From the NCBI GenBank assembly GCA_963772405.1, contig CAVYWT010000003.1, positions 24,911 through 88,910 of the forward strand: 64,000 bases of DNA. The letters run 5' to 3'. A model generated the notes under the pieces. That model had not been told where the DNA came from. It searched no databases and saw nothing but the letters and a program-made list of their open reading frames with translations. The position numbers and the translations under genes are program-made. The DNA is from an uncultured Acidobacteriota bacterium. GTDB taxonomy: Bacteria; Acidobacteriota; Blastocatellia; Pyrinomonadales; Pyrinomonadaceae. This document shows positions 8,663 through 62,443 of this stretch, one piece after another; position 1 is the stretch's first letter; each line of letters opens with the position of its first letter.

Positions 8663-8782
8663 TTCAAGTTTCAAATCTCAAATCTCAAATTTCAAGTTTC
8701 AAATCTCAAATCTCAAATTTCAAATTTCAAATCTCAAATTTCAAATTTCAAATTTCAGATTTCAGATTTCAAATCCCAAATT
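8663..8782. repeat. Tandem heptamer array A: about 17 x TTCAAAT/CTCAAAT/TTCAAGT/TTCAGAT
   Basis: The direct 7-nt periodicity can be read straight from the sequence. It starts 8 nt after the tyrS stop, and the hspR stop codon lies in its last units. Confidence 0.95.
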
Positions 8783-9191
8783 CCCCTCTCATTCTTCCTC
8801 GATCGTTACTTCTTCGTACTGCACTCGACGATAACGTGAGATCGGTATCAGCGGCATCGGTCGGGCTGGTAGCACCGGCCGGTCGTGAAAATTCGTCCGC
8901 GTGATTTTTCAAATACTCGAAAAATCTTTCGAATTCCCGCTGCATCGAATCCATCTTTTCACGCATGTTCAGGATGATCTCGACACCCGCGAGATTGACG
9001 CCCAAGTCGCGCGTCAAAGCAAGGATCACTTCCAGACGTTCGAGATCCGAATCTTCGTACATTCGCGTGTTGCCGACCGAACGCGACGGCTTTAGCAAGC
9101 CTTCGCGTTCGTACAACCGCAGCGTCTGCGGATGTATGTCATATAGCTCCGCTACCGCGCTGATCGTATAAGTTTTGATCTTTCGTTTCAT
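8769..9191 (-). CDS. hspR: MerR-family heat-shock regulator (HspR-like)
   Basis: N-terminal MerR helix-turn-helix YTISAVAELYDIHPQTLRLYEREGLLKPSRSVGNTRMY. It is the last gene of a dnaK-dnaJ-hspR string on the minus strand. Confidence 0.85.
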   Translation of the reverse strand: MKRKIKTYTISAVAELYDIHPQTLRLYEREGLLKPSRSVGNTRMYEDSDLERLEVILALTRDLGVNLAGVEIILNMREKMDSMQREFERFFEYLKNHADEFSRPAGATSPTDAADTDLTLSSSAVRRSNDRGRMRGEFGI

Positions 9192-9197
9192 TCGGAA

Positions 9198-9293
9198 GAA
9201 GTCAGAGGTCAGAATTCAGAATTCAGAATTCAGAAACCAGAAACCCGAAACTAGAAACTAGAAACGCAGAAACTAGAAACCAGACCTCTTACT
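9198..9293. repeat. Tandem heptamer array B: GTCAGAR/TTCAGAA units grading into ACYAGAA/ACCAGAA units (about 13 units)
   Basis: Direct 7-nt periodicity. It lies inside the operon between the dnaJ stop (9310) and the hspR start (9191). Confidence 0.95.
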
Positions 9294-9309
9294 CTCAATT
9301 ATCAACTAA

Positions 9310-10486
9310 CTAGTCCAGTCCCATCGCCTTTCGAGGGTTCTCCGGATTCAATTTTTCAAACTGTCGCAGCACGTCTTTTGTCTCTTCCGAGGTGACCTTT
9401 GGCAGCATGATCTTCACTTCGATAAACTCGATCGCCGCGCAACTTTGGATTTCGCAGGCTTGGAAATCCACGTTCACGAAGACGGAACTTCTGTCCCGAT
9501 TCTGTGCCCGCCGGAATCTTCAGCTGAGCTTTTCCTTCTACGGTCGGGACCTCGATCTTGGTGCCGAGCGCCGCCTCAGGTACGGTGATCGGGACAGTGA
9601 TGTAAACGTTATCGCCACTTGCGTTCGAGAAACTTGTGCTTGCCGACATTCGTCAGAATGAACAAGTCGCCGGGCTCTGCGCCGAGGCGGCCGCCGTGGC
9701 CTTTCTTCGGAATTCGAACACGCGAACCCGTATCCACACCCGCCGGGATCCTGATCTTCACCTGCTCGGTCTTCGGCGTCGTGCCTTTGCCGTTACACAA
9801 CGAACACGGCAGTCGACGTCGACCGGTACCTTCGCAATCGGGACACGGCTGCGAAAACTGAAGCCGCCCACCGGTTCGCATTACCTGTCCCGTGCCCTTG
9901 CACGTCGTGCAGTGACGACAGGACCGCCCGTATCACCGGCACCCTGACAACGCGAGCACTGCTCGCTGCGATTGACAGTGATATTGGTCGTCAGGCCGGT
10001 GAACGCCTCTTCGAAACTGAGTGCAAGAGGGATTTCGATATCGCGGCCTTTTTTCGGCATAGGCCGCGGCGGTTCCGGTTCTCGCGCGCGTTCCGGCTCC
10101 TCCGCCGCTGCCACCGAACAGATCCGAGAAAATATCGCGGAAACTCGAACTCCCACCCGAGGCCTGTCCGCTTGAGAAATCGAAGCCCGAAAAATCGAAA
10201 CCCGCCGCTCCACCACCTGCCGAAGCTCCGGCACCGGCACCGTACGGCGAATCGGGATCGAGATTGTCGTTGTAATATCCAAATCGGTCGAAAACCTTAC
10301 GCTTCTTTTCGTCCGACAGAACGTCGTAGGCTTCCTGTACCTCTTTGAATTTTTCTTCAGACACCTTGTCGTTCGGATTTACGTCGGGATGAAACTTGCG
10401 CGCAAGCCGGCGATACGATTTTTTGATCTCGTCCGCTTTTGCGTCTTTCTTGACGCCGAGTATTTGTAGTAATCCTTCTTTGCCAT
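9310..10486 (-). pseudogene. dnaJ: Molecular chaperone DnaJ, interrupted by about 5 frameshifts
   Basis: The protein can be followed through shifting frames. J domain: [38 protein letters not shown] region. Zinc-finger CxxCxGxG repeats: [25 protein letters not shown]-terminal domain ending PRKAMGLD. Frame changes are near 10463, 10090, 9895, 9625 and 9440. Confidence 0.85.
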
Positions 10487-10510
10487 TTCGAGATTAGTGA
10501 CGAGTGTAAA

Positions 10511-10565
10511 GTGACGAGGGACGAGAGGCAAACTTATTCCTGGCTTGTCCCTCGTCCCTCGTCAC
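10511..10565. repeat. Perfect 15-bp hairpin built from GACGAGG-type units, between dnaK and dnaJ
   Basis: gtgacgagggacgag / ctcgtccctcgtcac with a 25-nt loop. On the transcribed (minus) strand it is followed by UUUACAC. Confidence 0.8.
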
Positions 10566-10576
10566 TTTTCCCTTGA

Positions 10577-12537
<1,961 letters not shown>

Positions 12538-12590
12538 TTATGTAATATACCCAGCTCTTACGTATAAAAATATGACTTGAGCCAGGCGAA

Positions 12591-12619
12591 AGTATAATAG
12601 TTGAGTGTCCTGTTGTCAA
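12591..12619 (-). promoter_or_regulatory. Sigma-70-like promoter upstream of dnaK
   Basis: On the minus strand the sequence reads TTGACA - 17 nt - TATACT, with the -10 about 65 nt upstream of the dnaK ATG. Confidence 0.5.
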
Positions 12620-12722
12620 ATTCTATTGAGGCCGGGGCCGCTCCGGGCCCAATCTAGTATTTTCTTGACGTTTCCTCACAATTACTTAAGAATAATTAAA
12701 CAACGCGCCGGGACTTTAATAC

Positions 12723-22512: not shown

Positions 22513-25500
22513 ATGAAGATTTCCCTGCATACCGTAGTGCTTTACGCGACCTTTGTACTTCTTACTTCGTCGCTCGCCGCCGGACAGGATCTGGACGATG
22601 TCACCGTTTCCGGAAGGATCACCGATTCAAATAACCTGCCTATACTTGGTGCCGTAGTAACTGCGACGCACATCCAGTCAAATTCAGAGCGCGCGGTGAT
22701 CTCCGGCGAGGATGGGTATCGTTTCATCGATCTCAAACCCGGTACGTACAAAATAAAAGCCGGTGCGGCCGGCTTCGGTATCAGGGAAACGGTTGGAATC
22801 GAAATACTCTCCGGCCAGAACGTGCGGCTCGATTTCAGGCTCTCACCCGCGGAGGTTACCGCCGCGACGACGGTTTCGATCACCGACGACGACATTCCCG
22901 AGGTGGACACAACGCGGATCGTCGTCGGCGGAACGCTTTCTCAACGCGAGATCGAAGAACTGCCAAATAACTCGCGGAACCCGCTGGATCTCGTGCTGAC
23001 GCTCGGCGGGACGTCGGAAGAACAGCTTTCGACGAGCGGCATGGCCGAAGACCGATTTCAGTCGCCGCCGACCGCACCATTGGAACAGGGAAACTTCTCT
23101 CTGTCGGGCGGTGTCGCGTATTCCAATAATCTGACGATCGACGGTCTCGACAATAATGACGACCGGTCGTCGCAAGACAGATTTCGGCCGTCCCTCGAAG
23201 CGATCGAGGAGGTCCAGGTTATTTCGAACCAATTCTCATCCGAATACGGACGAGCGTCCGGCGGCCGGATCAATCTCCGAACGCGGGCCGGTTCGAATCA
23301 TTTTCGCGGTCGCCTGTTTATGTTTTTTCGCGACAATAACTTGAATGCGAATAGTTGGTATAACAACAGCCGTACGCCCGCCGTCGGCCGAACGCCCCTG
23401 ACCGAATACAACCCGGGTTTTACGTTGGGCGGACCGGTTCGGGTGCCGTTCTACAACGGAAGGAACAGGACCTTTTTCTCCGTCGCGTATGAACACAACA
23501 ATCTTGTCGATACGACATTCATAGACACTTGGGTGCCGGTCGGCGTGAATCCGCACTTTAGTCTCCCGGCGCCGACGACCGCGACATGTCCGCCGACTAT
23601 TGCCTCCTGCAATGACTCGAGCAGTTCTCCGCCAACGCCGATTCTTCCATACCAAGCCGCTCTGGACACGCCCAACGTCAATCATTCCTTTACAGCCCGG
23701 GTTGATCATAATTTCTCACAGGCGAACAGCTTCACGTTCGGCCTGCAATTCGGTCGCAGGCACAATCGGCGAACCACCTCTGCATCGACGACCAGGCTGG
23801 ACGACGCGCTTCAGGTTCGGAACACTGCGTCCGAGGCCTACAACTTTACGGACAATCACGTTTTCGGCGGCGAAAAGCGTAAACCAGATTCGCGCGCCAG
23901 TATTCGATCTACCACCCGAGTTTTCAGACGAGTGATCCGTTTGGCCCGGTCGTGTTGATCGGATATACAAATCCGGCCGGTGGTGCTCAAACATTGGTAG
24001 CGGGAAATTCGACGGCGGCGATCGCCGGTGACGCGACGGGCTTTCCGCAGAATCGGCGGGAGACGCGCATGCAGGTTCAGGACTCGTTCAGTTACGTCGC
24101 GGGCAGCCACACCATGAAGACGGGATTCGATGTCATGAAGGTTAGGTCGAAAGCGATCGGGCTCGGGGACGCAACAGGTACCTTTAATTTTAGCGGGGTA
24201 TTGAATTTCCAGAATAACGTTCTGTCGCGCTACCGGCAGAATTTCGGCACTGCTTCGGACGTCACGAATAGCTATATCGGGCTGTTTCTCAACGACACGA
24301 TCAGTTTTCGAAGAGATCTGACGATCAGCTTCGGGCTTCGCTACGAACGAGAAACCGCCGTCGAAGACAAGAATAATTGGGGCCCGCGATTCGGATTCGC
24401 GTGGGATCCGTTTAAGAACGGGAAAGGCGTCGTTCGTTTTGGCGCCGGTATTTTTTACAACCGAGTGCTTCTCCGCACCGTCGCAGATTCGATCCAGAAC
24501 ACAGGTGGGAATCAAGTCTCGTTCGATACAAATCTAATTCCCGCTCGTTGCGACGGACAACCGCCGGCGCGACGTGCTTGCGGCGATCGCAGCAAACTTT
24601 CCGGGGGCGTTCGCGTCCGTCGATGCCATCAGGAATCTTCTGGCAGCCGTCTGCCCAAACGTGACGCCGGCACCGCCCGCTCCGTGCACGACCGATCTCG
24701 GCTTTCTCTCCAGTGTGACAAGCAGCGGGAACCCGCTCAGAACGGTCGACCGAGATCTGAGAATTCCTGAAAGCTATCAATTCAACATCGGATTCGAACG
24801 CGAAGTTCGAAGGGGATGGGTTTTCGAAGCTAATTACACGTGGAACAAGACCGCTCACCTGTGGCGCGACCGAAACGGGAATGCGCCTCGGTTGCCATCG
24901 GGCTACGCTGACTGGACGGCGTGGCTCGTCGATCATCCATTCGTATTGTCACCGACTCGCATGTATACATTTTTTCGAGGATCGGCGAGCGACACTAACG
25001 GCCTGCATGCAAATTCTCCAGCGAGCACGACGATCTGCAGCGTCACGACAGCAAATTGTTTTGTGAATCTCAACACGACGAGTGGCTCAACCACCGCCCC
25101 ACTGGTCGCCGTGCCGGGGACAAATAACAATGCGACCGGCGGTCCGATCGGTATTCCGCTGGCCGCGATCAGCCATCTCAGGCCAGATCCGACCCTTAAA
25201 GAAACATCGATCATAGGGTCGGCTGGAAACGCATTTTATCAGGGCTTGGTCTTACAGCTTCGAACCAGGCATCGGAAACTCGGGCTGGGGTTCGGGTCAT
25301 CGTTTCGGTTCAACTACACGCTTTCGAAATCAATGGACGACGGGCTAAACAATACTTCGAACGCGGAGATCAACGGAGATTTTCGCCGCGAATGGGCGCG
25401 GACTTTGCAGGACCGCAGACATCGTGTCGCTTTCTCGGGCATATTCGAAACGCCTTGGTGGCTGGGACGACTGAGGCTCGCGCCGCTCTATCGTTGGGGC

Positions 25501-25953
25501 AGTGGCTCGCCGTTCAATATCGGGGACGGCGGATCCGACAGAAACCTTGACGATCTTGGCACGGATCGGATCAATTACAGCGGCGATCTACGACAGTTAC
25601 GCTGGCGGCGGCCGGGTTCGACTATTCCGACGGACGAATACCTCGGCCAATTTTCGCTTGCTCCGATCGGCGCAAGAGGCGGGAATCTTCCGCGTAATGC
25701 AGGGTCTGGCCCATCTTTTTATACTTTCGACTTGAGCGTAACCCGGGAGTGGAAATTCGGTGATCGCGTGAAGCTGCGTCCGGTCGTTCAATTTGACAAC
25801 ATCTTGAACGCGGCCGTTTTTAATTATGGGGCCGCATTCATCGACTTCAGTAACCTGACGCTTTCTAATTCCGCCACAAAAGCGAATTTTTTGGTGCCGA
25901 CGCGCACCTATCGCCAGCGGCAGATACGGATTGGGACGCGACTAGACTTCTAG
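22513..25953 (+). pseudogene. TonB-dependent-receptor-like outer-membrane protein with an N-terminal carboxypeptidase-regulatory-like domain, about 3 frameshifts
   Basis: Signal peptide, then the CarboxypepD_reg-like segment VSGRITDSNNLPILGAVV..PGTYKIKAGAAGF, a plug-like region, and long beta-barrel-type sequence ending in ..RIGTRLDF. Three ORFs (22513..23958, 23952..24770, 24574..25953) join through frame changes near 23870, 23895 and 24545. Confidence 0.75.
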
Positions 25954-26094: not shown

Positions 26095-26850
26095 ATGAGC
26101 CACGTAAAAGAGAGCACAGGCGTGCTCACCGAAGTTTCAATCGAGTCGGTCCTTCTCGACGCCGATCTATTCGTAAAATACAGTTCACCGGACAAGGCTT
26201 TTAAGCTGCTCCATGATTCGCTTGAACGAAGTCCGCGGTCGATCGCCTTCCGCGAGAAACTCCGCGACATCTGCATCAAGCAAAAGAACCTGAACGAAGC
26301 GGCTCGTCAGTGTCTCGCGCTGGTAAGTCTTTATATCGGCCGGGAAGAGTTCGATCTGGCATACGATCGCCTGCAGGAAGCGAAGCTGCTCGACCCGCGT
26401 GTTTCTGTGGCACCCGGCCTGGAAGCGATCCGCCGAGCACGCCGCCCCGACTTTGCCGTCAATCGCGATCGTTCTCCGCAGAAGGTTCGGACTGACGTGA
26501 CGTTCGCCGGCAACCTTGGCTACGTCAGCATCTTTGACGCGGTTCAGGTCATCGAAAGCTCGAAAATGACGGGCCTGCTGGTCGTTAAATCGGATCTCCA
26601 TCTGGCTAACGTTTCATTTAATGAAGGAAAGATCGTCGATGCGGAATGCAACGGTCATAATGGGCACCATGCGTTCCGCGAAGTGATCGAGATCAACAGC
26701 GGTACGTTCGAGTTTTCGACTTCGGAAAACGAGTTTCCGGTCGTTCTTAACGTTGTCAGCAATACAAACTTTCTGCTCGACGTCCTAACCGAGCTCGACA
26801 ACGAGCGCGCCGAGAAACAGGGTCTTCGAAATGTCGGTTCGGAGCTGTAG
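26095..26850 (+). CDS. TPR-like N-terminal region plus a DUF4388-like domain protein
   Basis: The C-terminal half (GNLGYVSIFDAVQVIESSKMTGLLVVKSD..ANVSFNEGKIVDAEC..GHHAFREVIEINSGTFEFS) fits the DUF4388 pattern. ATG 26095 is preferred over the TTG at 26080. Confidence 0.6.
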   Translation: MSHVKESTGVLTEVSIESVLLDADLFVKYSSPDKAFKLLHDSLERSPRSIAFREKLRDICIKQKNLNEAARQCLALVSLYIGREEFDLAYDRLQEAKLLDPRVSVAPGLEAIRRARRPDFAVNRDRSPQKVRTDVTFAGNLGYVSIFDAVQVIESSKMTGLLVVKSDLHLANVSFNEGKIVDAECNGHNGHHAFREVIEINSGTFEFSTSENEFPVVLNVVSNTNFLLDVLTELDNERAEKQGLRNVGSEL

Positions 26851-26936
26851 TCAGAAGTCAGAAGTCAGAAGTCGGAAGTCAGATTCTCTCCGAAAACTGC
26901 TGAATTCTGCCTTCTGCCTTCTGACTTCTTTTTCTT
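26849..26936. repeat. Tandem heptamer array D (GTCAGAA x ~5) with an inverted arm (TTCTGCC/TTCTGAC) and a T-run; terminator-like
   Basis: gaagtcagaagtcagaagtcggaagtcaga .. loop .. ttctgccttctgccttctgacttc followed by TTTTTC. It begins at the stop codon of the upstream gene. Confidence 0.85.
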
Positions 26937-26995
26937 GACTTAACATTCTCTTTACCCCAAAATATAGTGCACCTCGAGTTCCCCAGCACTATAGA

Positions 26996-29900
26996 ATGTT
27001 TAAGCTTCAACGTTTAGAAATCACCGGTTTCAAGTCGTTCGCGGACTATACCGAGATCGTGTTCACCGGCAACGGTATTACGGCCGTCGTTGGCCCCAAC
27101 GGCTGCGGCAAGTCGAACGTATCCGACGCCATCTCATGGGTCCTTGGCGAACAGCGGGCCAAGTCGCTCCGCGGAGGCGAAATGAAGGACGTCGTCTTTC
27201 AGGGTTCGCGAAACCGCAAACCCGGCGGGATGGCTGAAGTTGTCCTCCACCTCGTTCGTGACACAGAGGCGTTCGACATCGACGAGAACGAACTCGAAGA
27301 CATCGATGAAACACTCAGCGCACTGGACGAGACGGCGGTTGATGTCGATGCTCTCGAAGCTGAAACCTTAGACGCGGAAACACTCGAGGTTATGACGCTT
27401 CCGGCCGACGCCGAAGAGATTCGCGATCCTCAATCCGCGATCCACATCGGAGATGAGTTTGAGGTCGAGAAAGTGCAGGCGGCGCAGGTCGGATCCGTCC
27501 AGACTGTCGAGCGAACGATAAAAACAAAACGTCACTGGCGTCCGCGTTCGTTCGCGCTCGACTTTGCCCCCGGCGAGGCTATCGCGGTAACACGACGGCT
27601 CTACTTGTCGGGTGAAAGCGAATATCAGCTCAATGGCAAAACTTGCCGGCTGCGCGATATTCAGGACCTCTTTGCTGGTACTGGTTTGTCGGGCGCGCAT
27701 TACGCGATCATCGAACAAGGCCGGATCGGGCAGATCCTTTCGGCAAAGCCGTCGGACCGCAGAAATCTGATCGAGGAAGCGGCAGGAATATCCAAGTTCC
27801 GTACTCGGCAGCGTGCCGCGGAAACGCGTCTTGATTCGGCGCGGACAAATCTCGGACGCATTTCGGATATCGTTTCCGAGATCGAGAAGCATGCCAACTC
27901 GCTGCGGCGACAGGCGTCAAAGACACGCCGCTACATCGTACTTCAGGAAGAATTTCGTGTTCTGCTTCGACAGCTTTTCGCCGCCGAAGGAAAATTCCTC
28001 TCTTCTGCAATTGAGAATTTTGAGAAGCAGCTGGCCGAAGCAGTCGAAGTCGAAAGGGGATTTGCGGCGAAGGTTGCGGCCCAGGAAGAAGCGTTTCGCG
28101 ACGCCACTCAGCGTGCTCGTTTTGTGGAAGAAACGCTCGCCGAGATCCGACACCGCCATGCCGAGAACGCGCTCGAACGCGACCGCGCCGAACGCGAGCA
28201 TCGCTATCAGGCAGAACAGATCGTCAATCTGAACAATCGCTCGGAATCCGTCCGTGGTGAGATCGATGCGGTTGAGCAGCGCTTGAAACTGATCGAATCC
28301 GAACTCGCTCGACTGCACAAAGAAGACGAAGCGGAAAGTGCCGAGGCTGATGCGTCCCGCCTCATCCTACAGGAAGCAGAAAAGCAGTATGCATTAAAGC
28401 TCGACGATGTGCAGAAGATCGAAGAAGAACTCGAAACGCATCGCACCGAGCTGATGAAGCACACCGCCGCCCTCGAAAGGTTTGACGAGATAGCACGACA
28501 GCTCGACGCAAACGCAGAGCGGCTGAACGAACGGCTGCAAGGACTCGAGCGTGAGGAGGTTCGCGCCGCCGAGGCGTTCGATGCGTTTGTAAAAGAATCT
28601 TCCGACCTCGAATCGAACCAGAAAAACGAAGCGCTGAAACTTGAATCGCTTCAGGCGGAAAAGGTGGAATTGCTTTCCGCGACCGCTGCGGCCCGGGAAA
28701 AACTGCGTGCGTCCGAAGAGTCGCTTCGGAACCTGGAAGCCGAGCAGCTAAAAACGAGTAACCGGCGCGACACGCTTCTCGAACTGGATGAGAAACGGGC
28801 GGTCTACGCGCCGCAGATCCAGAAACTTTTTGCCGAACAGGAGAACATCGGTGTTCGTCTGTCGGGCGTTCTCGCGGATTTTCTTTCCGCGGATGAGAGA
28901 GCGGAACTCGCTATCGAGAGTTTGTTCGGACAGCGGCTGCAGACGGTCCTGGTCGAAAGCGTTGACGATGCGAAAATGGTTTCGGCGTGGCTTGAGAACA
29001 ATGCGATAGGACGCATCACTATCCTCGCGGCCCCGTCGCTTCAAGGGCGAAATACGAGATCGTCGCCGTCGGGTGAGTTTGTCCGCGACGTGCTTGGTGT
29101 CTCGGGTGACCTTCTGGAAACATTGCAAAACGCGTTTCCCCGCGAATTATCCGCCAGGTTGATCGAGAGCATCGGCGATGTCGAGCCAAACACCGGCGAA
29201 ATTTGTGTCACTCGCGGCGGCACCGTGATCAGCCGCGAAGGATTGTTTGTCAGCGGACGCGAAGCGGCCGATGACCGGCCAAATGCTTCGCTTCTCGCTT
29301 TCAAGCGCGAGCTGACCGGACTCGGAACGACGCTCGCCGCGCTCGGTGATGAAATTTCGATCGCGCGTTCGATCGCCGAAGAAGACGGACGATCACTCGC
29401 ATCCATCGAAGAGAAAACCGTCGATCTCCAGTCGCTCATCATTAAGGTCGAGCGAGGCTTGCACGGACTCGATATTCAGCGCTCTACAACCCGCCAGGAG
29501 ATCGAGCGGGCCGAGCGACACAAGAAAGTCGTCGCCGAAGAACAGAAACAGACACGTGAAGAGCTTGAGCAAAACACTGTGCGTATCACCGAAGCGGCGG
29601 AGAATCGCCGGACGGCCGAACAGTATCGCGACAGTGCGCGGAGTGAGGTTGAGCGTGTCAACACGCTTCTTGCGGAGGCCCGGTCAAGATCCGACGCCGA
29701 AAATTCGGTCGTCAACGAAAAGCGGACACTGGCCGCAACTTCCGGAGAACGTCGCCGCTCAGTGCATTCTGCACTAAAGCGCGTCGAGAATGAGCAGAAG
29801 GAACTCGAAACACGATCGGCGATGCAGACGGTCGAGTTGAGCGAGATAGATATTAAGATCGCCAGTTTGCGCGAATCGACCGCGGCGATCGCAGACCGGA

Positions 29901-30825: not shown

Positions 30826-31056
30826 ACTGTGAGCTGTGAACTGTGAGCTATGAACTATGAGCTATGAGCTATGAGCTATGAGCTATGAGCTATGAGCTAT
30901 GAACTATGAGCTATGAACTATGAACTATGAACTATGAACTATGAACTATAAGCTATGAGCTATGAGCTATGAACTATGAACTACCCTTTCACATTTCATA
31001 GTTCACAGTTCACAGTTCATAGTTCACAGTTCATAGTTCGAAGTTCACAGCTCACA
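30826..31056. repeat. Tandem heptamer array E: about 22 x ATGAACT/ATGAGCT/GTGAGCT/GTGAACT, a 14-nt loop, then about 8 inverted units (ATAGTTC/ACAGTTC)
   Basis: The periodicity and inverted arm can be read directly. It starts 3 nt after the smc stop. Confidence 0.95.
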
Positions 31057-31120
31057 CCTGACTACAAACCCCTCCGCGATTTGCGTCATCAAACCCCCGG
31101 GATAGATAATCCACCCATTC

Positions 31121-31942
31121 ATGCGTATTCATAGATCTATCGTTGCTCTCTTGGCCGCCGTCCTTTTGGCGTCCGCAGGTTTGGCGCAGACCAAACGACG
31201 AACACGGCCGCTCGTGAAAAAGCCAGTCATCACAGTAGCCGAACCAACACCGAGCCCTTCTCCAGCCGAGCCGAGCGCCATAAAGCCCGAACCGAAAAAG
31301 AACGAGAGACCGGCACCTAACGGAAGCACCCACAGAGCAGAGGATCCGCGTCCCAAAATTGAGCCCGTATATTTCTACGAATTCTCGCAGCCCGATTTCA
31401 TGATCAGCAAGATCGTGATCGAGCATGACGAGACGGGACGCGGAACCATCACGTTCACTAAAAAGTTGTTCGGGGACACGGTGACCGATCCGCTTCAAGT
31501 CTCGACGGCAGCTCTAGAGCGCATCAATGCGACGTATGCCGCGCTGAACTTCCTCGAGTCAAACGAAAGTTATCAATACGAAAAAGACTATTCGCATCTT
31601 GGCGTATCGACCTTCAGGCTGAAGAAAGGCGATAGACCGCGTACGACCGTTTTTAACTACACCGTAAATAAGGACGCGAAAGTTCTCGCCGATGAATACC
31701 GCAAACTCGGAAATCAGTTCATCTGGATTTTCGACATAACGGTCGCCCGCGAAAATCAGCCGCTCGAAACACCGAGACTTCTCGATGCGTTCGACGGGCT
31801 GTTGAAGCGCAATGAGATCTCCGATCCATCACAACTACTGCCTATTTTGAAAGACATGAAGGACGACGAACGTATCCCTCTGATCTCGAGGAATCACGCC
31901 GGGAAGTTGGTGGAGAGAATCGAGAAGGGAACGAGGAAGTAG
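31121..31942 (+). CDS. Secreted hypothetical protein
   Basis: 273-aa ORF with a signal peptide (IVALLAAVLLASAGLAQ) and a Pro-rich linker. I recognise no family. Confidence 0.6.
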   Translation: MRIHRSIVALLAAVLLASAGLAQTKRRTRPLVKKPVITVAEPTPSPSPAEPSAIKPEPKKNERPAPNGSTHRAEDPRPKIEPVYFYEFSQPDFMISKIVIEHDETGRGTITFTKKLFGDTVTDPLQVSTAALERINATYAALNFLESNESYQYEKDYSHLGVSTFRLKKGDRPRTTVFNYTVNKDAKVLADEYRKLGNQFIWIFDITVARENQPLETPRLLDAFDGLLKRNEISDPSQLLPILKDMKDDERIPLISRNHAGKLVERIEKGTRK

Positions 31943-32019
31943 TTTCTGGTTCCTTGTTTCTAGTTTCGCTTTGAGCCCGGAGGACGACGACTAGGAACCA
32001 GGAACCAGAAACGAGAAAC
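31942..32019. repeat. Short fold-back element F of GAAACYA/GGAACCA-type units
   Basis: gtttctggttccttgtttctagtttc .. 23-nt loop .. ctaggaaccaggaaccagaaacgagaaacta. It lies between convergent stops at 31942 and 32019. Confidence 0.8.
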
Positions 32020-32387
32020 TATTTTAACGAATGCAAGCCGAACATAGTCCCCTCCGTGTCATACACCAAAGAGATAAATCCGTACTCCCCGATCGAGAAC
32101 TTCGTTTTTTCAATTCGTCCACCGGCGCCGACGACCCTTGACTCTTCGGCTGCGCAATCTTCGCAGCTGAAATAGATCAGGACGCTGTTTTGGCCGGCCG
32201 GAAAGCCCGGCATGTGTACGAGTGAGCCAGCTGAGCCGGCGGCATTGGAATCCATCGGAAAATTCCACATCTCGACGTCCGGGCCCGGTAGCTTTTCGAG
32301 CTTTACCTGCAGAACTGCCTCATAAAAGGCCCGTGCACGTTCCATGTCATCAACATAGATCTCAAACCATCCAACGGGATTTCGCAT
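32019..32387 (-). CDS. VOC (glyoxalase/bleomycin-resistance) family protein
   Basis: 122 aa. The N-terminal GWFEIYVDDMERARAFYEAVL is typical of single-domain VOC proteins. Confidence 0.75.
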   Translation of the reverse strand: MRNPVGWFEIYVDDMERARAFYEAVLQVKLEKLPGPDVEMWNFPMDSNAAGSAGSLVHMPGFPAGQNSVLIYFSCEDCAAEESRVVGAGGRIEKTKFSIGEYGFISLVYDTEGTMFGLHSLK

Positions 32388-33526: not shown

Positions 33527-33724
33527 ACGAAGGAACTTCTGGTCTGGCATAAAGCTTGGGGCGATACCGTTCATAAGATGTCGAATCCGACAGCTTTGAT
33601 GGAAAAAAAATCGGCGAAACGGTATTAGAACACTCTTCGCCGATTTGGTAAATGAGAATTTTACTACTCGTTTAGAGGCGGGCCTGCCCGCCGCTTTCGT
33701 TCGAGGTTGCTTCGCAGACATTTT

Positions 33725-33801
33725 GCCGCGGATAAACGCGGATGACACCGATCCTGAAATATTTCTTACTCTGATCCGCGTTATCCGCGTTTATCCGCGG
33801 C
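33725..33801. repeat. Hairpin repeat (GATCCGCG/TTATCCGCG type)
   Basis: gccgcggataaacgcggatgacaccgatc pairs with gatccgcgttatccgcgtttatccgcggc, with a ~19-nt loop. It is downstream of the FG-GAP gene stop at 33827. Confidence 0.75.
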
Positions 33802-33826
33802 TAAATATCTTCGCCTTTGGGGCTCT

Positions 33827-36076: not shown

Positions 36077-39000
36077 TCACGCACCCGCCGGTGCAATGCG
36101 TTCCGAAACTTCGGGGTCGCTTGCAGGTGAGATGTCATCCGAGTCGCCAAACAAAGATTCATCGACGATCTGCCTCTGCTCGATTTCGTGGATCGCATAC
36201 GAACCGGTCGCCGGCGAAGCCGATGCAGTCCGGCCAACATACCGAAGCGATGTCCCGTCCGGCATGATCTCACGCAGCCGCGGCTCGACAAATGTCCACC
36301 CGCCCATATTCTGTGGTTCTTCCTGCGTCCAGAAAATCTGTTTCGCATTAGGATATGAAGTAAAGATCTCGTTCAGGCGTGAGGCAGGAAACGGATAGAA
36401 CTGTTCAAGTCGGACTACCGCAACACGAGCGTCCACCACTTCGCCATCCGCATGACGTCCCGCTTCGAGATCGTAGAAAACTTTTCCGCTGCAAAGCACG
36501 ACGCGTTTGACGGCGGCGTTGTCGGTAATCGCGGCATCGCCGATGACAGGCTGGAATCCCCCGGTCGTCAATTCTTCCATCGTCGATGACGCAGCCGGAA
36601 GACGCAGCAAGCTCTTCGGCGTCATGACGATCAACGGCCGGACGATCTCTTGCTTAACCTGACGTCGAAGCATGTGGAAATATTGCGCCGGCGTCGTCGG
36701 GTAACAGACCTGCAAATTATTCTCGGCGCAGAGCTGGAGATAGCGCTCCAGCCGTGCAGAGGAATGTTCCGGCCCCTGTCCTTCGTAACCGTGCGGCAGC
36801 AGCAGCACGAGCCGGCATCGTTCCTGCCATTTGTCTTCGGACGCGGCGATGTATTGGTCGATGATCACCTGCGCCCCGTTCGAAAAATCGCCAAACTGTG
36901 CTTCCCACGCGACCAGCTCGTCGCGGGCGATGATCGCATATCCGTACTCAAATCCGAGCACGCCGGATTCACTCAAGCTACTGTCGAAAACATAAAAGCG
37001 TGCGTGCGGATCGCTTTCGTTCTTGAGCTCGCTGAGGGGTGTCCAACGTTCGCCGGTCAAGGTGTCGTACATCGACGCATGTCGCTGTGAAAAGGTTCCG
37101 CGACCGGAATCCTGACCGCTAAGGCGGACCGGAAATCCCTCGACGACCAGCGATCCCATCGCCATCGCTTCGGCAAATCCCCAATCCATCGGAGCTTCGC
37201 CGGCACCCATCTTCGCGCGGCGGGCGAGTTGGCCCACCATCTTCGGATTGATATTAAAGCTGTCCGGGATGATCGAGATCTTCTCGGACACCTCACGTAG
37301 AACATCCGCCGCTGCGGCGGTTTCGAGAATCGCCGATCCGTCTTCATCCGGAATGCGTGCGGGCAGAGACGTTTTTTTCGGCTTTACTTCAGAAGCGATC
37401 TGTTTTGCCCGGCCGAGAATGCCTTCGTACTTTGCAACCACGGCGTCGGTCATCTGCTTCAGCTCATCTTCTGTGATCACACCTTCGCGTATAAGACTCT
37501 CGGCGTACAGATGACGTACTCCCGGGTGGGCTTTGACTCTGGCGTACATCAACGGCTGTGTGTAGCTTGGCTCGTCGCCCTCGTTATGCCCGAGCCGCCG
37601 GAAGCCGATCAGGTCGAGCACGACGTCCTTGTTAAACTCGCGTCGATAATCAAGGGCGATCTGCATCACGCGATACGCTGCTTCGGGTGCGTCGCCGTTG
37701 ATGTGAAAGATCGGCGTCTGCGTTATCTGAGCGGCGTCGGTCGAATAGATCGAGCTGCGGCCGAGCTGAGGCGAGGTCGTAAATCCGATCTGGTTATTGA
37801 TAACGATATGGATCGTCCCGCCGGTCCGATAGCCCGGCAGATTAGCGAGCTGGAGTGTTTCCATTACGATGCCCTGCCCGGCGAATGCCGCGTCACCATG
37901 CAGCAGAACCGGAAGAATCTTTTCGTAAACTTCCTCACGCATTTTTTGCTCGCCGTTGCGGATGTCGTCTTGTCGGGCACGCGCCATCCCTTCAACTACG
38001 GGGTTCACAAACTCCAAATGGCTCGGATTACACGAGAGTCGAATTTTTATTTCGCGTCCGGTCTTTGTCTTTTTATTTCCGATCGCACCCTGATGGTATT
38101 TCACGTCGCCCTCGTCGGCGGGAAACGATGGGTGCGATGTGCCTTCAAAGACCGTGAAGATGCGCTCTGCCATGTCGCCGGTCGCCGCATCGCCAATAAT
38201 GTTCGAGAGAACATTGAGCCGGCCGCGGTGTGCCATACCCATGTAGATCTCATCGACGCCGCGCTCCGAAGCTCCCTCGACAAGCTGATCCAGCATCGGG
38301 ATGACCGTCTCGCAGCCCTCAAGCGAAAACCGTTTTTGTCCGAGATACTTCTTGTGCAGGAATTGTTCGAACTGCTCGGCCTCGATAAGTTTTTGCAAAA
38401 GCTCTTTTCGTAATTCCGGAGCGAGCGGTTCGATGTCTACAAAGTTCTCGCGAACACGGGCACGGATCCATTCCTTTTCTTCCTTGCTCTGAATGTGACG
38501 GTACTCGCTGCCGACCTTGCCGCAATACGCGCTCTGCAAAATGTTGAGAATCCGTCGAAGGGTGGCGGTCTTTTCGCCGTGCAGGCCGCCCGTGATGAAC
38601 TCGCGATCGAGGTCCCAGATCGTCAAGCCAAAATTTTCGAGCTCCAGCTCGGCGGCGTTCTGCGACGTCATGTTGAGCGGATCGACGTCCGCCAGCAGAT
38701 GGCCGCGTATGCGATACGCATTGATGAGCTGAAGCACATTCGCCTGTTTCCCGGCTTGTTCGCTAAAACGGTCGCCGCCAAGCAAACTCGGGTTATAATC
38801 TTCGGCCCAGCGAAGCGGAGGATAGTTTATGGCGAGATCTGAAAATATCTGGTTGTAAAAATCGTGCTGGCCCTATGAGCAATTCGTGAATTCGAGCGAG
38901 GAACAAGCCGCTCTCTGCACCCTGTATGACACGATGATCGTAGGTGCTGGTGATCGTGATCGTCTTGCTTATGCCGAGCTGGCTGAGGGCTCCGGTCGTC

Positions 39001-39882
39001 ATCGCCTGATACTCCGCCGGATACTCGATCGCACCCGTCGCGATGATCGCACTCTGGCCCGACATCAGACGCGGGTTCGACGCGACAGTCCCGATCGTTC
39101 CCGGATTGGTGAGCGAGATCGTCGTCCCTTGAAAATCCGCTATCTCGAGCTTGCCGTCCCGAGCTTTTTTAATCTGATCGTTGAAGGCGTCGAAGAACCC
39201 GGCGAAGTTCATCTCTTCGCAGCCTTTGATGTTTGGCACGAGCAGATTGCGCGAGCCGTCTTTTTTCTCAATGTCGATTGCGATGCCAAGATTGATGCCG
39301 GGATTCTCGATTCGCGACGGCGCGCCATTGACGAGGCCATAGCCGTTGTTCATCGCGGGATAGTCTTTCGCCGCTCGGATTATCGCCCAGCCGATAAGAT
39401 GTGTGAACGAAACTTTGCCGCGGCCACGTCGCCGTCAAATGCTCATTTATGATGCGTCGGTTTTCTTCGAGAAGTTTGACGGGAATGTTGCGAAAGCTTG
39501 TCGCCGTCGGAACGGTGAGGCTCTGCTCCATGTTCTCGACGATCTTCTTCGCGACGCCGGTGAGCGGTTTAGTGACCGCGTCCGCGGGGACTGTGGTCGT
39601 TGGGGATTTTGGCGCCGGCGTTGCGGTGCTCGTCTCCTTCGGGGGTGCCGCAGACGCTGGTTCCTTCTTATCTTCTTGCGCCTCTACGCGAGCGCCATCA
39701 CCCGCGAGCAGATCGCTGAAATAGGTCTGCCAGGACTCGTCAACCGATTTTGGATCCGCCTGAAAACGAGCGAGTAAGCCCTCGACATAGCTCGCATTCG
39801 CTCCGAAATTCTCCGTAATAAAGGCCGATATATTGGTAGTTTTCTCGCTCACTTTTGTGTTTTGCAACCCGGGTGCAAGCAC
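36077..39882 (-). pseudogene. Kgd/OdhA-type fused 2-oxoglutarate dehydrogenase: E1o N-terminal motif, E2-like acyltransferase domain without a lipoyl domain, and E1o TPP domains. Two frameshifts
   Basis: N-terminal FGANASYVEGLLARFQADPKSVDESWQTYF, then a Pro/Ala/Thr linker. E2 catalytic domain: LTVPTATSFRNIPVKLL .. TSTYDHRVIQGAESGLFL. E1: NAYRIRGHLLADVDPL and GQGIVMETLQLANLPGYRTGGTIHIVINNQIGFTT. Frame changes are near 39428 and 38866; the second is a G-run. Confidence 0.85.
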
Positions 39883-39926: not shown

Positions 39927-40134
39927 ACTGTGAAGAACTATGAACTATGAACTATGAGCTGTGAACTATGAACTGTGAACTATGAACTATGAGCTGTGAA
40001 CAATGAGCTGTGAACTTTGAGCTGTGAACTATGAGCTGTGACCTGTGAACTACGAGCTATTAACTATGAACCTGGAATTCGTAGATTACCGTTCACAGTT
40101 CCACACGTTCACAGTTCACAGTTCACAGCTCAAA
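39927..40134. repeat. Tandem heptamer array G: about 20 x ATGAACT/GTGAACT/ATGAGCT units, loop, then about 6 inverted units. Same unit family as array E
   Basis: Read directly from the sequence. The inverted arm gttcacagttcacagttcacagctca abuts the nusB stop (40136), and the long arm ends ~45 nt from the kgd start. Confidence 0.95.
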
Positions 40135-40135
40135 G

Positions 40136-40627
40136 TTAAGCAGAGGCGTTTGATTTGCTGTCGGCTTTAGGAGCTTCGGGGGTAGAGGCCTTCTCGAGGT
40201 CAAGCTTGATCGCGTCGAGGATGCCGTTGATGAATTGGGTCGCTTCGAAAGTAGAGAATCGCCTCGCGATCTCTAGAGCTTCGTTAATGACGACGGTGTG
40301 CGGCGTGTCTTCGTGAAGAAATTCGTATACAGCGAGACGAAGGACGTTGCGATCGACCAGGGCCATGCGCTCGATACGCCAATGCTCGGCACGTGTCCTG
40401 ATCTTGTCGTCGATCGATTCGCTGTGCTTGAGTGTTCCGAGAACGAGGTTGTTGGAAAAAGTCCGAGTTTTTTCGTCAAAGTCGCCATCGCCGAGTTCTT
40501 TCCAATAGTCGTCGGTCGAAAACTCAAGTGAGTTCTTTACGACATCAGCGGCGAACAACATCTGTAAAGCGCATTCGCGCGCTTTCCGGCGAGTTCCTGA
40601 ACCCTTAGCTTCTTTTTCAAACGACAT
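40136..40627 (-). CDS. nusB: Transcription antitermination factor NusB
   Basis: 163 aa with RRKARECALQMLF and INEALEIARRF motifs. It overlaps the end of ribH, the classic ribH-nusB order. Confidence 0.9.
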   Translation of the reverse strand: MSFEKEAKGSGTRRKARECALQMLFAADVVKNSLEFSTDDYWKELGDGDFDEKTRTFSNNLVLGTLKHSESIDDKIRTRAEHWRIERMALVDRNVLRLAVYEFLHEDTPHTVVINEALEIARRFSTFEATQFINGILDAIKLDLEKASTPEAPKADSKSNASA

Positions 40628-46580: not shown

Positions 46581-48911
<2,331 letters not shown>

Positions 48912-48913
48912 CC

Positions 48914-48964
48914 GTCGCGGCGTGGAATAAGGTGATGAACCTGGATAGGTTTGACATCGCTTGA
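48914..48964 (+). repeat. 51-nt second copy of the katG 3' end (last 16 codons plus stop)
   Basis: Positions 48861-48911 and 48914-48964 differ at 4 of 51 positions. Both copies translate to [16 protein letters not shown]. Confidence 0.9.
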
Positions 48965-48982
48965 TCGACGCGGCTTGCCGCT

Positions 48983-49115
48983 CTATTTGCGGCGAAGCTT
49001 GCTTCGCCGGTGAAGCGAAAGAATGATGCGGCTATGCCGCCGATTAGAGTCGGCGGCATAGCCGCATATGTGTGTTAGGCACTAGCGCGGAAAAGCGAAG
49101 CTTTTCCGCAAATAG
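48983..49115. repeat. Compound palindromic element: two inverted hairpin units flanking a perfect 18-bp hairpin
   Basis: Left unit: ctatttgcgg + ggcgaagc/gcttcgcc. Centre: atgcggctatgccgccga / tcggcggcatagccgcat (49026-49067). Right unit: gcggaaaagc/gcttttccgc + aaatag. Confidence 0.8.
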
Positions 49116-53916: not shown

Positions 53917-53944
53917 GTGGTCAGATTCTCCGGTTGCCCCGTCT

Positions 53945-57748: not shown

Positions 57749-58845
<1,097 letters not shown>

Positions 58846-58969
58846 TTCCACTATTCTAAGCGCATTCGCGAGGTTGTGCATCCGTTTGCTTGCATGCAGC
58901 TCGCATACGCGAGCCTTATTTAACCGCCAGCGATTCCAAAAAGTCCTTAACGAATATAAAATCTGGCCT

Positions 58970-59848: not shown

Positions 59849-59870
59849 TTTTCTATCGCTTCATCGTTTT

Positions 59871-60067
59871 AGCTCCGCTAGGAGCGGAATGTTGGTAGAA
59901 ACGCCGTCACGTAAACCGGAAAGCTCCGTAGGAGCGGCACCGTAATGTCGCTCCTACGGAGCTCAAAATTCATTTTGCGTGAATTCGGCTACCAACATGT
60001 CGCTCCTACGGAGCTCGAACTCATTTGGCCGAATGCTGCTACCAACATGCCGCTCCTAACGGAGCTT
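59871..60067. repeat. Cluster of five REP-like units with a palindromic core GCTCCnnnGGAGC (CTACCAACATGYCGCTCCTACGGAGC)
   Basis: Units at ~59871-98 and 59921-44 are in reverse orientation. Units at 59947-64, 59989-60016 and 60040-67 are forward. Units 2 and 3 form a perfect 15-bp hairpin. Confidence 0.85.
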
Positions 60068-60082
60068 AGACAATTGGCACAT

Positions 60083-60703
60083 CTATCGCTTCTTCTTGCC
60101 CTTGAAGGTTGTTCCGTAGCAGTAAGGCTTCCCGCTTCGGGTTTCGGACATATCTATCTCGGGGAAGAACTTGAATCCCGTCGATTCGACCAGATCCGGA
60201 TATTTCTGTTGGAGGTGCCTGATGACAACCCTTGGGCTTTTGAAGGTATGAAATGCCTTGAACAGCAACAGCTCGAACGAAGATGATTCGATCCAATCTA
60301 CATCTTTCGTAAATCCCGTTACCATCGCGACTTGAGTTTGCTCGACAAATTCCCGAACCGCGACCGGAGTTCTCAAGGTGCTGCAAGTTCCAAAGTGAAT
60401 TATCCAATTCGTGAACCGGTGATTCATCATTCCCGCCAGATCTGGCAGCTTTACACGGTCGCGATGCAGGTGGATACGTCCCGGCGAGCCGTGAAATGCG
60501 AAGTAAAGGACGCCGTAGTTCCGTTTGCAAAGCAGATTGAGGTTGTACTGCAGCTCTTCGCGGGTGTTACAGGTGAGGTGGCTGAATTTCGATTCCATGG
60601 TCTTCGAGATAAGCTCTAAAGTGGGTAAAACATTGAGCTTATTCTCGATGTGACCATTCCACATCGACTCGAGACACGCGATATTTCGCTTCCTATACGA
60701 CAT
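60083..60703 (-). CDS. Hypothetical protein with a caspase-like His...Cys signature
   Basis: 206-aa ORF. A hydrophobic strand followed by HG (VLYFAFHGSPG), and a second hydrophobic strand followed by C (WIIHFGTCSTL). Confidence 0.55.
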   Translation of the reverse strand: MSYRKRNIACLESMWNGHIENKLNVLPTLELISKTMESKFSHLTCNTREELQYNLNLLCKRNYGVLYFAFHGSPGRIHLHRDRVKLPDLAGMMNHRFTNWIIHFGTCSTLRTPVAVREFVEQTQVAMVTGFTKDVDWIESSSFELLLFKAFHTFKSPRVVIRHLQQKYPDLVESTGFKFFPEIDMSETRSGKPYCYGTTFKGKKKR

Positions 60704-60709
60704 AAGCGA

Positions 60710-61579
60710 CTACTCTGCAGTGAAGACTGCCACCGAAAAGGATATAAACAATATTACGCTAACAAAGGCATTAGTTGTAAAGAACGCAGCGTTCATTCGG
60801 CTTAAATTTTTTTCGGAAACCAGTGTGTGCTGATAGATCAGCAACACCGCGACAAGGATCACTCCGGCAAAGGCCAGCCATCCCAAGCCAGTGGCTAAGT
60901 AAAGCAATAACAAGGCTAGAAATGCCTGAAGATGGAATAAACGCGCAATCCAGAGCGAATTCTTAACGCCGAAACGTGCCGGAATCGAACGAAGGCCGGC
61001 ACGCTTGTCGAAGTCGTGGTCCTGACACGCATACATCACGTCGAATCCGGCCGTCCACATCAGCACAACGAGCGAGAGCAAGATCGGTACTTCCGAATCG
61101 ATCGTTCCCCGAACTGCGATCCAGGCCGCTGTCGGCGAGATCGCGAGAGCCCATCCGAGCATCAGATGCGAAAATGCCGTGAACCTCTTGGCGTATGAAT
61201 AACCAAGAACACTGAGTAATGCGACAGGTGAGAGGGCAAAGGTCAACCAGTTCAGCATGTACGATGCGAGCAGAAACACCGCTATCGAAACGAAAAGGAA
61301 TGCCCATGCAAAGCCAACGGAAAGCCGTCCGCTTGGAAGCTCGCGACCGGACGTGCGGGGGTTCGCGGCATCGAAATCGATGTCGATGATCCGGTTAAAT
61401 GTCATCGCAGCGGAGCGTGCCCCGAACATCGCGGCCGTGATCCAGGCGATCTGCTGGATGGTGGGCAACCCATTCGCCGCCAAAATGGCCCCGAGAAAAG
61501 CAAACGGAAGCGCGAACAGCGTGTGCTCGAACTTGATCATTTCGAGCGTAATTCGCAATTTGCCCCAAAATTCTGCCAT
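60710..61579 (-). CDS. UbiA-family aromatic prenyltransferase (4-hydroxybenzoate polyprenyltransferase-like; possibly the futalosine-pathway prenyltransferase)
   Basis: [23 protein letters not shown] (NxxxDxxxD), a second Asp-rich motif [14 protein letters not shown], and 8-9 TM segments. Confidence 0.85.
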
Positions 61580-61741
61580 AGCGGGCGCACCGGTCGGGCC
61601 GGTGGGAACATCTCCTTACATAGCGGAACGATGATTCTACCAGAAGCAGACAGTTTTTCCAGAGGCGTTGTGGAAAACCAGCGAAGAAGCTGGCACAATA
61701 ACCTGACCTTTTCCGGTTAACTTCTTGGTACAAAGAAACTT

Positions 61742-62275
61742 ATGCCCAGCGGGAAAACCCATGATGCGATCACGCTGATCCTTGCCGGCCCGGTCTTCGG
61801 AGCTACACTTCTGCTGACTCATGACATCTGGCTATCGACCGTCGCGGCGGTTGGATTTCTGTTTGGGGGATTTATGTTCGGACCGGACCTCGATACGGTT
61901 TCGAAGCAGTACTCGCGATGGAAATTTCTAGCGTTCTTGTGGTTTCCCTACCGGAGTTTTTTCAAACACAGGTCCCGGTGGTCGCACGGGTTGATCTTCG
62001 GGACGTTCTTACGTGTAGTTTATTTTATGGGGGTTGCGACCTGTCTTGCTTTTCTATTAATGGTCGGATACACGACTCTCGCCGGGGGTGAAATTTCTGC
62101 CGTGTGGGATTTTCCGCGCGTTTGGTCCACGCTGCGACAACATTCGGCCGCCGCGCTCGGACCGGGTGGCTTGAGTGCGATCTTTGTCGGAATGTGGCTC
62201 GGAGCCGCGAGCCATACGGTCACCGATCTCGCGGGCTCGTACGTTAAGACGGGAAGAGTCGGTGACATGTTCTAG
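61742..62275 (+). CDS. DUF2227-like putative metal-binding membrane protein
   Basis: MPSGKTHDAITL .. GPDLD .. HRSRWSHG .. fits the pattern of that family. Confidence 0.55.
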   Translation: MPSGKTHDAITLILAGPVFGATLLLTHDIWLSTVAAVGFLFGGFMFGPDLDTVSKQYSRWKFLAFLWFPYRSFFKHRSRWSHGLIFGTFLRVVYFMGVATCLAFLLMVGYTTLAGGEISAVWDFPRVWSTLRQHSAAALGPGGLSAIFVGMWLGAASHTVTDLAGSYVKTGRVGDMF

Positions 62276-62277
62276 GA

Positions 62278-62443
62278 GAAGTGAAAAGGTGAAAAAGTGA
62301 AAAGGTGAAAAAGTGAAAAGGTGAAAAAGTGAAAAAGTGAAAAAGTGAAAAAGTGAAAAAGTGAAAGGTTAGATATCGTGACAATGATTTCTAACCTTCG
62401 CACCCCTTCACTCTTTCACCTTTTCACTCTTTCACTTTTTTAC
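62278..62443. repeat. Tandem octamer array H: 11 x GTGAAAAG/GTGAAAAA, a central 8-bp hairpin, then an inverted arm (CTTTCAC/CTTTTCAC units)
   Basis: Read directly from the sequence. It fills the spacer between convergent stops at 62275 and 62451. Confidence 0.95.

Follow-up and report, generated by a model that had tools for sequence, protein, structure and literature searches.

Tandem heptanucleotide arrays and their gene-end hairpins in a Pyrinomonadaceae bacterium

Why do genes of a bacterium end in long arrays of seven-nucleotide units, and what do these arrays do there? The question is raised by a chromosomal stretch of 64,000 nucleotides (nt), called the window below, from a Pyrinomonadaceae bacterium (Acidobacteriota, Blastocatellia). 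A sequence-only reading had pointed out eight such loci, A to H, and we confirm its observation except for the GAA/CAA phasing of the units. The answer that we hold probable is that slippage builds the arrays and that their paired form serves as an RNA hairpin at the gene end.

We used Tandem Repeats Finder (TRF) and a period scan of our own (periods 4–12) on the window arrays, with 20 first-order Markov simulations of the window as the chance control. The comparison set is 80 related smc loci of 1.44 Mb in total, gathered by an SMC search and labelled L001, L002 and so on. The scan found eight runs at period 7, one at period 8 and none at periods 4–6 and 9–12. The simulated sequence gave no run at any period.

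The repeats run head-to-tail in up to 22 copies, the length of long simple repeats. All eight loci are intergenic, inside the 12% of the window that lacks long open reading frames (ORFs). Six of them (A, D, E, F, G and H) lie −2 to 7 nt from a stop codon. Their supposed gene-end, non-coding position is thereby borne out. The eight loci are as follows.

A, 8662–8782, no strand assigned: about 17 units of TTTCAAA/TCTCAAA (17.3 copies by TRF), without a separate inverted arm.
B, 9197–9293, minus strand: five units of GTCAGAA/ATTCAGA and then seven of ACCAGAA/ACTAGAA, adjoining (TRF 9197–9284, two unit families).
C, 10511–10565, minus strand: 55-nt hairpin in the dnaK-dnaJ spacer with 2–3 GACGAGG units per arm.
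D, 26849–26936, plus strand: five units of GTCAGAA, a loop and 3.6 units of TTCTGCC/TTCTGAC (TRF 26849–26883; inverted array 26905–26929).
E, 30826–31059, plus strand: 22 units of CTRTGAR and then ten of TTCAYAG (TRF 30830–30983, 22 copies; inverted array 30988–31056, 9.9 copies).
F, 31942–32021, no strand assigned: hairpin of GTTTCTR units paired with YAGAAAC/CAGGAAC units (TRF reports one arm, 31993–32019).
G, 39927–40137, minus strand: after the nusB stop codon and upstream of sucA, six units of CTGTGAA, a loop and 19 of TTCAYAG (TRF 39935–40071, 19.6 copies; inverted array 40091–40137).
H, 62278–62448, no strand assigned: 11 units of the 8-mer AAGTGAAA/AGGTGAAA, a loop and six of TTTCACYT, between two convergent genes (TRF 62279–62366, 8-mer, 11 copies; inverted array 62394–62448).

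The tandem 7-nt units, and the 8-nt ones of H, are found alike by TRF, by the period scan and by reading the units themselves. C has only 2–3 units per arm, A lacks an inverted arm and B is unpaired. TRF reports an inverted array behind D, E, G and H, and F pairs two unit arms. That the inverted arm is the shorter one is no rule, and in relatives either arm can be longer (19 of 38 sites).

C to H fold stably as RNA on both strands with z-scores of −5.6 to −16, which agrees with the fold-back expected of D to H and extends it to C. Their loops are unrelated to one another. E begins 2 nt past the smc stop codon and has a minimum free energy (MFE) of −102 to −110 kcal/mol (z about −13). For C the MFE lies between −40 and −42 kcal/mol (z −8.4 and −9.6), and the z-scores are −10.7 and −16.2 for H, −7.6 for F and about −6 for both D and G.

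D begins at the stop codon of a DUF4388 gene and reaches to the conserved TTGACTTAA block that precedes smc. F takes up the entire spacer of two convergent genes, and their stop codons (TAG...CTA) are the base of its stem. A occupies the spacer of the convergent genes tyrS (stop 8655) and merR/hspR-like (stop 8769), and folds on itself because its unit is quasi-palindromic (AAATTT), with z of −5.7 on the plus and −7.9 on the minus strand. B lies within the dnaK-dnaJ-hspR operon, 16 nt from the dnaJ stop codon (9310) and 6 nt from the hspR start codon (9191). The halves of B are not complementary to each other and its fold is weak (z −2.3 and −4.1).

The same sites can be compared between genomes. 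At the D site, an alignment of eight genomes has a near-invariant upstream stop codon and a near-invariant block TTGACTTAA...TATAGTGCACC (longer, CTTGACTTAACATTC...TTACCCCAAAATATAGTGCACC). The hairpin there consists of GTCAGAA units in the window, L007 and L070, of the 8-mer GTGAAAAA, the unit of locus H, in L001–L003, of GTTTCTA units in L004 and of a non-repetitive GC-rich palindrome in L066. The 7- and 8-nt units are hence interchangeable at one site.

A metagenome scan with the conserved smc leader gave four loci, none with heptamer arrays at the D site. Two of them have long non-periodic hairpins, one has a classical terminator of a GC stem and a T-run, and one has a different upstream context. 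We scored the hairpin conservation in fixed windows. The D-site windows reach z of −4 or below in 23 of the 70 genomes (14 of these 23 non-heptameric), compared with 3 of the 76 coding controls. The conservation of the D-site hairpin is real but partial.

At the E site, every close relative has a hairpin whose start coincides with the smc stop codon or lies a few bases from it. Its units are CTRTGAR in the window and L003, AGAAAGC in L001, GGGACGA in L002, GTGATAA/GTGGTAA in L031 and GTGACGA in L066, and the stems of L004 and L007 are non-periodic. Some units form a series of single substitutions (GTGACGA, GTGACAA, GTGATAA, GTGGTAA and GGGACAA), as expected if a mutated unit spreads through its array. 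The copy number shifts by whole units, from 22+10 at E in the window to 16+7 in L003. Thus, the repeat unit differs at the same site between genomes with 93–95% identical SMC, and the flanks are near-invariant.

At the F site of L003, the left arm and the loop are absent, and the upstream ORF continues across the right arm, which is still present. The junction lies at a shared GGAAC, and this loss reads as a microhomology deletion. The alignments of D, E and F contain neither conserved termini nor target-site duplications of the kind that marks a miniature inverted-repeat transposable element (MITE). They display replacement between fixed functional flanks.

The smc leader (26937–26995) is almost invariant although SMC is only about 81% identical across genomes. 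It consists of the TTGACTTAA block and a palindrome TATAGTGC-N15-GCACTATA just ahead of the ATG, an arrangement that could represent a promoter together with an operator or a 5′ hairpin.

A survey for recurrence in relatives had been proposed, and it yields about 190 similar arrays. Period 7 is the commonest tandem period in the relatives with 209 arrays, and periods 14 and 21 are also present. The arrays of period 7 or 8 with at least 3.5 copies occur in 49 of the 80 loci, and the other 31 are array-free. Arrays make up 0.54% of the DNA in the relatives versus 1.33% in the window. Heptamer arrays with an 8-nt variant are a trait of Pyrinomonadaceae.

The 146 array sites comprise 73 between tandem genes, 18 between convergent and 5 between divergent ones, 43 inside long ORFs and 7 at contig ends. 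The median distance to the stop codon is 2 nt, and 64 of the 91 sites lie within 10 nt. An inverted partner is found within 160 nt for 83 of the 120 intergenic arrays. In contrast to the mainly intergenic period 7, the period-6 arrays are coding in 25 of 28 cases. Three short-read contigs stop within an array.

Of the nine intergenic regions in the window that fold strongly, seven are these arrays, so the arrays are its main gene-end structure. Classical sites of a hairpin and a U-tract are no commoner than in shuffles (26 versus 24.9 ± 5.4 in 20 kb of the window). Like an intrinsic terminator, the arrays place a stem-loop directly 3′ of the gene, and in D and H T-runs occur inside the last unit. 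Among the three roles initially proposed, that of a terminator or 3′ stabiliser fits best, with the closeness to stop codons and with other hairpins or a terminator at the same site.

The arrays are not confined to spacers. Distant relatives have perfect heptamer arrays in frame within smc, without stop codons and without an inverted partner. They occupy two loops of the protein, at about residues 125–150 (head) and 670–700 (hinge). One array, for example, has (AGTTCAA)5 and then (AATCGCA)3 and encodes VQSSKFKVQSSK.... Since 7 and 3 share no factor, all three frames are read in turn and 7-residue peptide repeats such as KSKVQSP result. In-frame arrays are found at L036:11983-12050, L022:12005-12071, L030:11997-12043, L059:11517-11587, L079:12007-12042 and others. 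The window has a decayed one.

Decayed in-frame array, 27418–27443, plus strand: 3.7 copies of GATCCGC in the window smc, encoding EIRDPQSAIH.

This decayed array is kept as an array in L001, L006 and L011, and other proteins likewise hold in-frame heptamer arrays. The in-frame arrays point to a mutational process that acts wherever its product is tolerated.

The unit repertoire is wide. There are 89 distinct unit classes in the family, and at least six unit families within the 64 kb. The sharing of units first noted between E and G, between the left part of B and D and between the right part of B and F holds up. An in-register alignment of E and G reaches up to 78% identity over 167 nt, and G shares with E the unit family and its orientation relative to transcription. 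GACGAGG, the unit of C, runs for more than ten copies after smc in L002. The 8-mer family of H recurs at the D site of L001–L003 and in L022, L034 and L047.

Two sites of one genome share the same class in 8 of 159 pairs, compared with 0.45 under the composition null and 2.7 under site permutation. In L030, AAGATTC occurs at two intergenic hairpins and in the coding smc hinge. The unit classes have a weak common pattern (4.32 bits versus 3.75 ± 0.10), and TGA/TCA, AGT/ACT and CTGA/TCAG are specifically enriched. The phasing of the units by GAA or CAA did not survive, as it is absent in C and CAA is not enriched (z 1.1). GAA itself is found in 43 unit classes versus 23.5 expected by within-unit shuffling. 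This is background because GAA/TTC is in 1.73-fold excess genome-wide.

The units CTTCTGA/ATTCTGA of D and the left part of B fit the Geobacter consensus MTYCTGA, and L053:9814-9930 has TAACTGA. Such units coinciding with those of other phyla hint at a sequence preference common across phyla. A CTGA/AGT-rich core recurs in the heptamers of Geobacter, Beggiatoaceae and cyanobacteria.

From the presence, position, folding and turnover of the arrays, and from the hairpins conserved at the same sites in relatives, we infer how the arrays may arise and serve. Replication slippage would add or remove whole 7-nt units and homogenise each array, by which the unit at a site drifts or is swapped quickly. 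It would fill tolerant DNA as far as the stop codon, promoter or start codon that borders it and would also work in frame in disordered protein loops. The in-frame unpaired arrays, the arms unequal in either direction, the F junction of L003 and the contigs breaking in arrays are signs of such a mutational origin.

At the gene 3′ ends, the arrays would form both arms of a long hairpin and this hairpin would be the selected feature. In the transcript it would most likely halt the RNA polymerase or block 3′-exonucleases, and so insulate the neighbouring genes like the repetitive extragenic palindromic (REP) elements of E. coli. This role in termination or 3′ protection rests on the position and the hairpin conservation, not on an RNA-specific signature.

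Several results weigh against slippage-built arrays acting as RNA hairpins. The sense RNA folds no better than the antisense (17 versus 20, p=0.75), so there is no sign that the structure acts in RNA as opposed to DNA. A U-tract past the hairpins (at least five T in the next 9 nt) is found at 6 of 36 sites in sense and 2 of 36 in antisense (p=0.48). B forms no hairpin, A has no inverted partner array, and many distant relatives have no strong fold in the fixed windows. E and G carry the same unit with the same variant positions at unlinked sites. The enrichment of TGA/TCA, AGT/ACT and CTGA and the multi-locus sharing are not explained by simple local slippage.

The probabilities that we attach to the different readings overlap and are not meant to sum to unity. 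Possible, though doubtful, is that the arrays and hairpins are a functionless, neutral by-product of mutation, namely of a 7-nt slippage bias and fold-back template switching in unconstrained spacers. This would account for the in-frame arrays in protein loops, the array boundaries that match the nearest constrained sequence exactly, the freely varying arm lengths, the array-free loci of relatives, the loss of hairpin F in L003 and the lack of a sense-strand bias and of a U-tract. However, the same sites are held in relatives by non-repetitive hairpins and a classical terminator, because of which the site seems to need a hairpin irrespective of repeats. Neutral filling is also at odds with the rarity of arrays between divergent genes and with the hairpins being the main strong gene-end structure of the window. 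A trans-acting process with a sequence preference, which installs or copies the heptamer family at unlinked gene ends and in protein loops, is rather unlikely in our view; it could be gene conversion between arrays, template switching or an unknown enzyme. If true, it would explain the genome-specific repertoires, the variants shared by E and G and the CTGA/AGT-rich core across phyla. Mobile cassettes of a MITE or REPIN type, inserting at gene ends and copied between loci, are improbable. They agree with the unit families and variants shared at unlinked loci (E with G, B with D and F), with the within-genome sharing above the site-permutation null and with the different cassettes at one site in close relatives. 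They disagree with the lack of conserved termini and target-site duplications, the unrelated loops and unequal arms, the absence of any transposase or RAYT among the 20 window proteins scanned, the arrays in frame within coding sequence and the E-site substitution series, which fits evolution in place.

That an oligomeric protein binds the arrays as phased sites in DNA or RNA, another of the roles first proposed, is about as improbable as such cassettes. The candidate binders would be IHF/HU, as was guessed in the case of Geobacter, or RNA binders that work in a 7-nt register, such as HutP, cold-shock proteins or S1. The non-random unit classes, their enriched short motifs and the particular units favoured by some genomes would suit a binder, and comparable ideas have been put forward for Beggiatoaceae, Nostoc and Geobacter (PMC4679880, bioRxiv 10.1101/2022.06.06.494920, PMC2700814). 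A binder is hard to reconcile with 89 unit classes, units of 7 and 8 nt interchanging at the same site, a unit swapped there between genomes with nearly identical SMC, in-frame coding arrays and a GAA phasing at the level of the genome background, and no candidate protein was identified. The third role proposed, contingency loci whose copy number switches expression by phase variation, is very unlikely. The copy number does vary among relatives and B abuts a start codon, but almost all arrays follow housekeeping stop codons (tyrS, smc, nusB and dnaJ), not promoters or the 5′ ends of coding sequences, and a 7-nt change after a stop codon shifts neither a reading frame nor a promoter spacing. 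As to an assembly artefact, several window genes are broken by frameshifts and short-read contigs end in arrays. We give it next to no credence, because dozens of assemblies made independently have the same kind of array at the same sites, and one has the same unit at E; this rules it out.

Other candidates were dropped. The arrays are not CRISPR, as there are no spacers, nor plasmid iterons, as they lie among chromosomal housekeeping genes. TRAP- or HutP-type triplet sites fail since TAG is depleted in the units. In 27 of 38 sites the purine-rich arm is the first one (p=0.014), but this apparent rule vanishes when the sites at the same position are collapsed (10 versus 7).

The arrays belong to the known heptanucleotide repeats of bacteria, named STRR in cyanobacteria, and the class and its paired design are already published. 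The sequence-only reading had taken the array-plus-inverted-array design as undescribed, yet paired inverted heptamers have been reported for Xanthomonas (PMC4692102) and Geobacter (PMC2700814). According to Mrazek 2007, as related in PMC4679880 and PMC4692102, the long simple repeats of many prokaryotes are most often heptanucleotides, and slippage of the polymerase was proposed as their cause.

In Xanthomonas, GGGAATC arrays form 70–75 convergent inverted pairs in each genome, preferentially no more than 50 bp from a stop codon (Rehm et al. 2015, PMC4692102). Like ours, these and the GGGGAYT arrays of Nostoc are tandem heptamers over-represented intergenically, which tend to overlap the stop codon or to lie no more than 50 bp from it. 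The convergent inverted pairs of Xanthomonas can form stem-loops near stop codons. In both genera the length and sequence vary between close species and the single or inverted-pair type is kept, as here (PMC4692102). Both use one G-rich, G-quadruplex-forming unit family (PMC4692102), whereas here are many families and no G-tracts. Neither GGGAATC nor GGGGAYT occurs among the 89 classes, and the window has no G-tract units.

Geobacter metallireducens has paired sites on opposite strands with tandem 7-, 8- and 9-nt units (Aklujkar et al. 2009, PMC2700814). The likeness lies in the several unit families and in the opposite-strand pairs in intergenic spacers, including those of operons (proB-proA). 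The fit of its heptamer consensus MTYCTGA to the unit of D and the left part of B may be chance. In contrast, its copy number is fixed and low (3–5) and the sites are read as those of IHF/HU (PMC2700814), whereas here the copies reach 22 and the arms are unequal.

TAACTGA direct repeats are found in Beggiatoaceae, Cyanobacteria and Bacteroidetes (MacGregor 2015, PMC4679880). They too are intergenic, differ between strains in 7-nt steps and break assemblies, and a hairpin of the TAACTGA class stands at the D site of L053. They are mostly upstream of start codons, with one unit and one inverted pair (PMC4679880), whereas ours mostly follow stop codons and are usually paired. B resembles their start-proximal arrangement without a Shine-Dalgarno sequence (PMC4679880), and none is evident in the dnaJ-hspR spacer where B lies.

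In two relatives, a heptamer hairpin spans the dnaJ-hspR spacer between stop and start codon (L021:4900-5000 and L022:4640-4800) and leaves no space for a Shine-Dalgarno sequence before the ATG. As speculation only, such a hairpin could gate the translation of hspR, for example as a thermometer-like structure.

The STRR elements of heterocystous cyanobacteria, from work of Mazel et al. in 1990 and also mentioned in PMC4692102, are reportedly tandem heptanucleotides with few unit families at many intergenic loci. They resemble our arrays in these traits and in being shared among related species. They differ in the phylum and the units, and the hairpin pairing is far more regular here. The STRR1–3 units CCCCAGT, TTGGTCA and CAACAGT have no match among the 89 classes.

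The REP elements and their composites (BIME) of enterobacteria are intergenic hairpins at gene ends or within operons that stabilise the upstream mRNA without a U-tract. A single conserved palindrome, imperfect and about 35 nt long, underlies all REP copies, and RAYT transposases mobilise it. Unlike REP, ours are tandem heptamers and have no single consensus, with their many unit families and unrelated loops. We propose by analogy that the gene-end hairpins may be functionally comparable to REP elements.

We found no published report of heptamer repeats in Acidobacteria. This study extends the heptamer arrays, including the paired fold-back form beside stop codons, to Acidobacteriota. The persistence of the hairpin and its position while the unit turns over bears on why 7 nt is favoured and what the repeats do. 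Practically, the arrays break short-read assemblies of the Pyrinomonadaceae, an abundant soil family. They can also create spurious ORFs and write 7-residue peptide repeats into proteins such as SMC.

The neighbours of the window arrays are housekeeping genes, namely tyrS, the dnaK-dnaJ-hspR(merR) operon, smc, nusB, sucA and katG. Further genes of the window encode peptidases and a hybrid histidine kinase. A search of the window for tRNA and tmRNA gave no match. The covariance models of Rfam, where a match had been sought, gave none at the gathering score across the whole window.

Several of the window genes are broken. On the minus strand (9310–12522), dnaK has at least three frameshifts and dnaJ at least five in otherwise well conserved protein. 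sucA and an outer-membrane beta-barrel gene are each broken into two ORFs (36077–39882 and 22513–25953, respectively). The cause is either indel errors of a long-read assembly or decay to pseudogenes. Together the broken genes suggest that the window assembly is indel-prone, so the exact copy numbers of its arrays need some caution. Exact-protein look-ups with three window genes for strain-level copy-number variants gave no match, the genome being apparently absent from the collection or its genes called differently in it.

Some of the related loci are unusual in smc. The smc of L047 is about 1,840 amino acids (aa) long (1577–7102), with an intein with a LAGLIDADG homing endonuclease at residues 47–598, and smc is likewise about 1,840 aa in L051, L053, L059 and L064. 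L040 has two inverted smc copies (28–3870 and 5753–9595), both of 1,280 aa and with matching arrays and flanks where compared. It is probably a fold-back chimeric contig.

The window holds other repeats. A 53-nt tandem duplication lies across the katG stop codon (48860–48965), and a perfect palindrome of 19 bp comes after it in the convergent spacer (49026–49067). Another tandem repeat, at 59945–60066, has a unit of about 50 nt in 2.4 copies with 86% matches and overlaps the start of a small ORF. Three long intergenic hairpins are non-heptameric (5565–5756, 6344–6424 and 33713–33813), and two of them contain 10-nt internal repeats (GTGTGAGTTC and ATCCGCGTTT).

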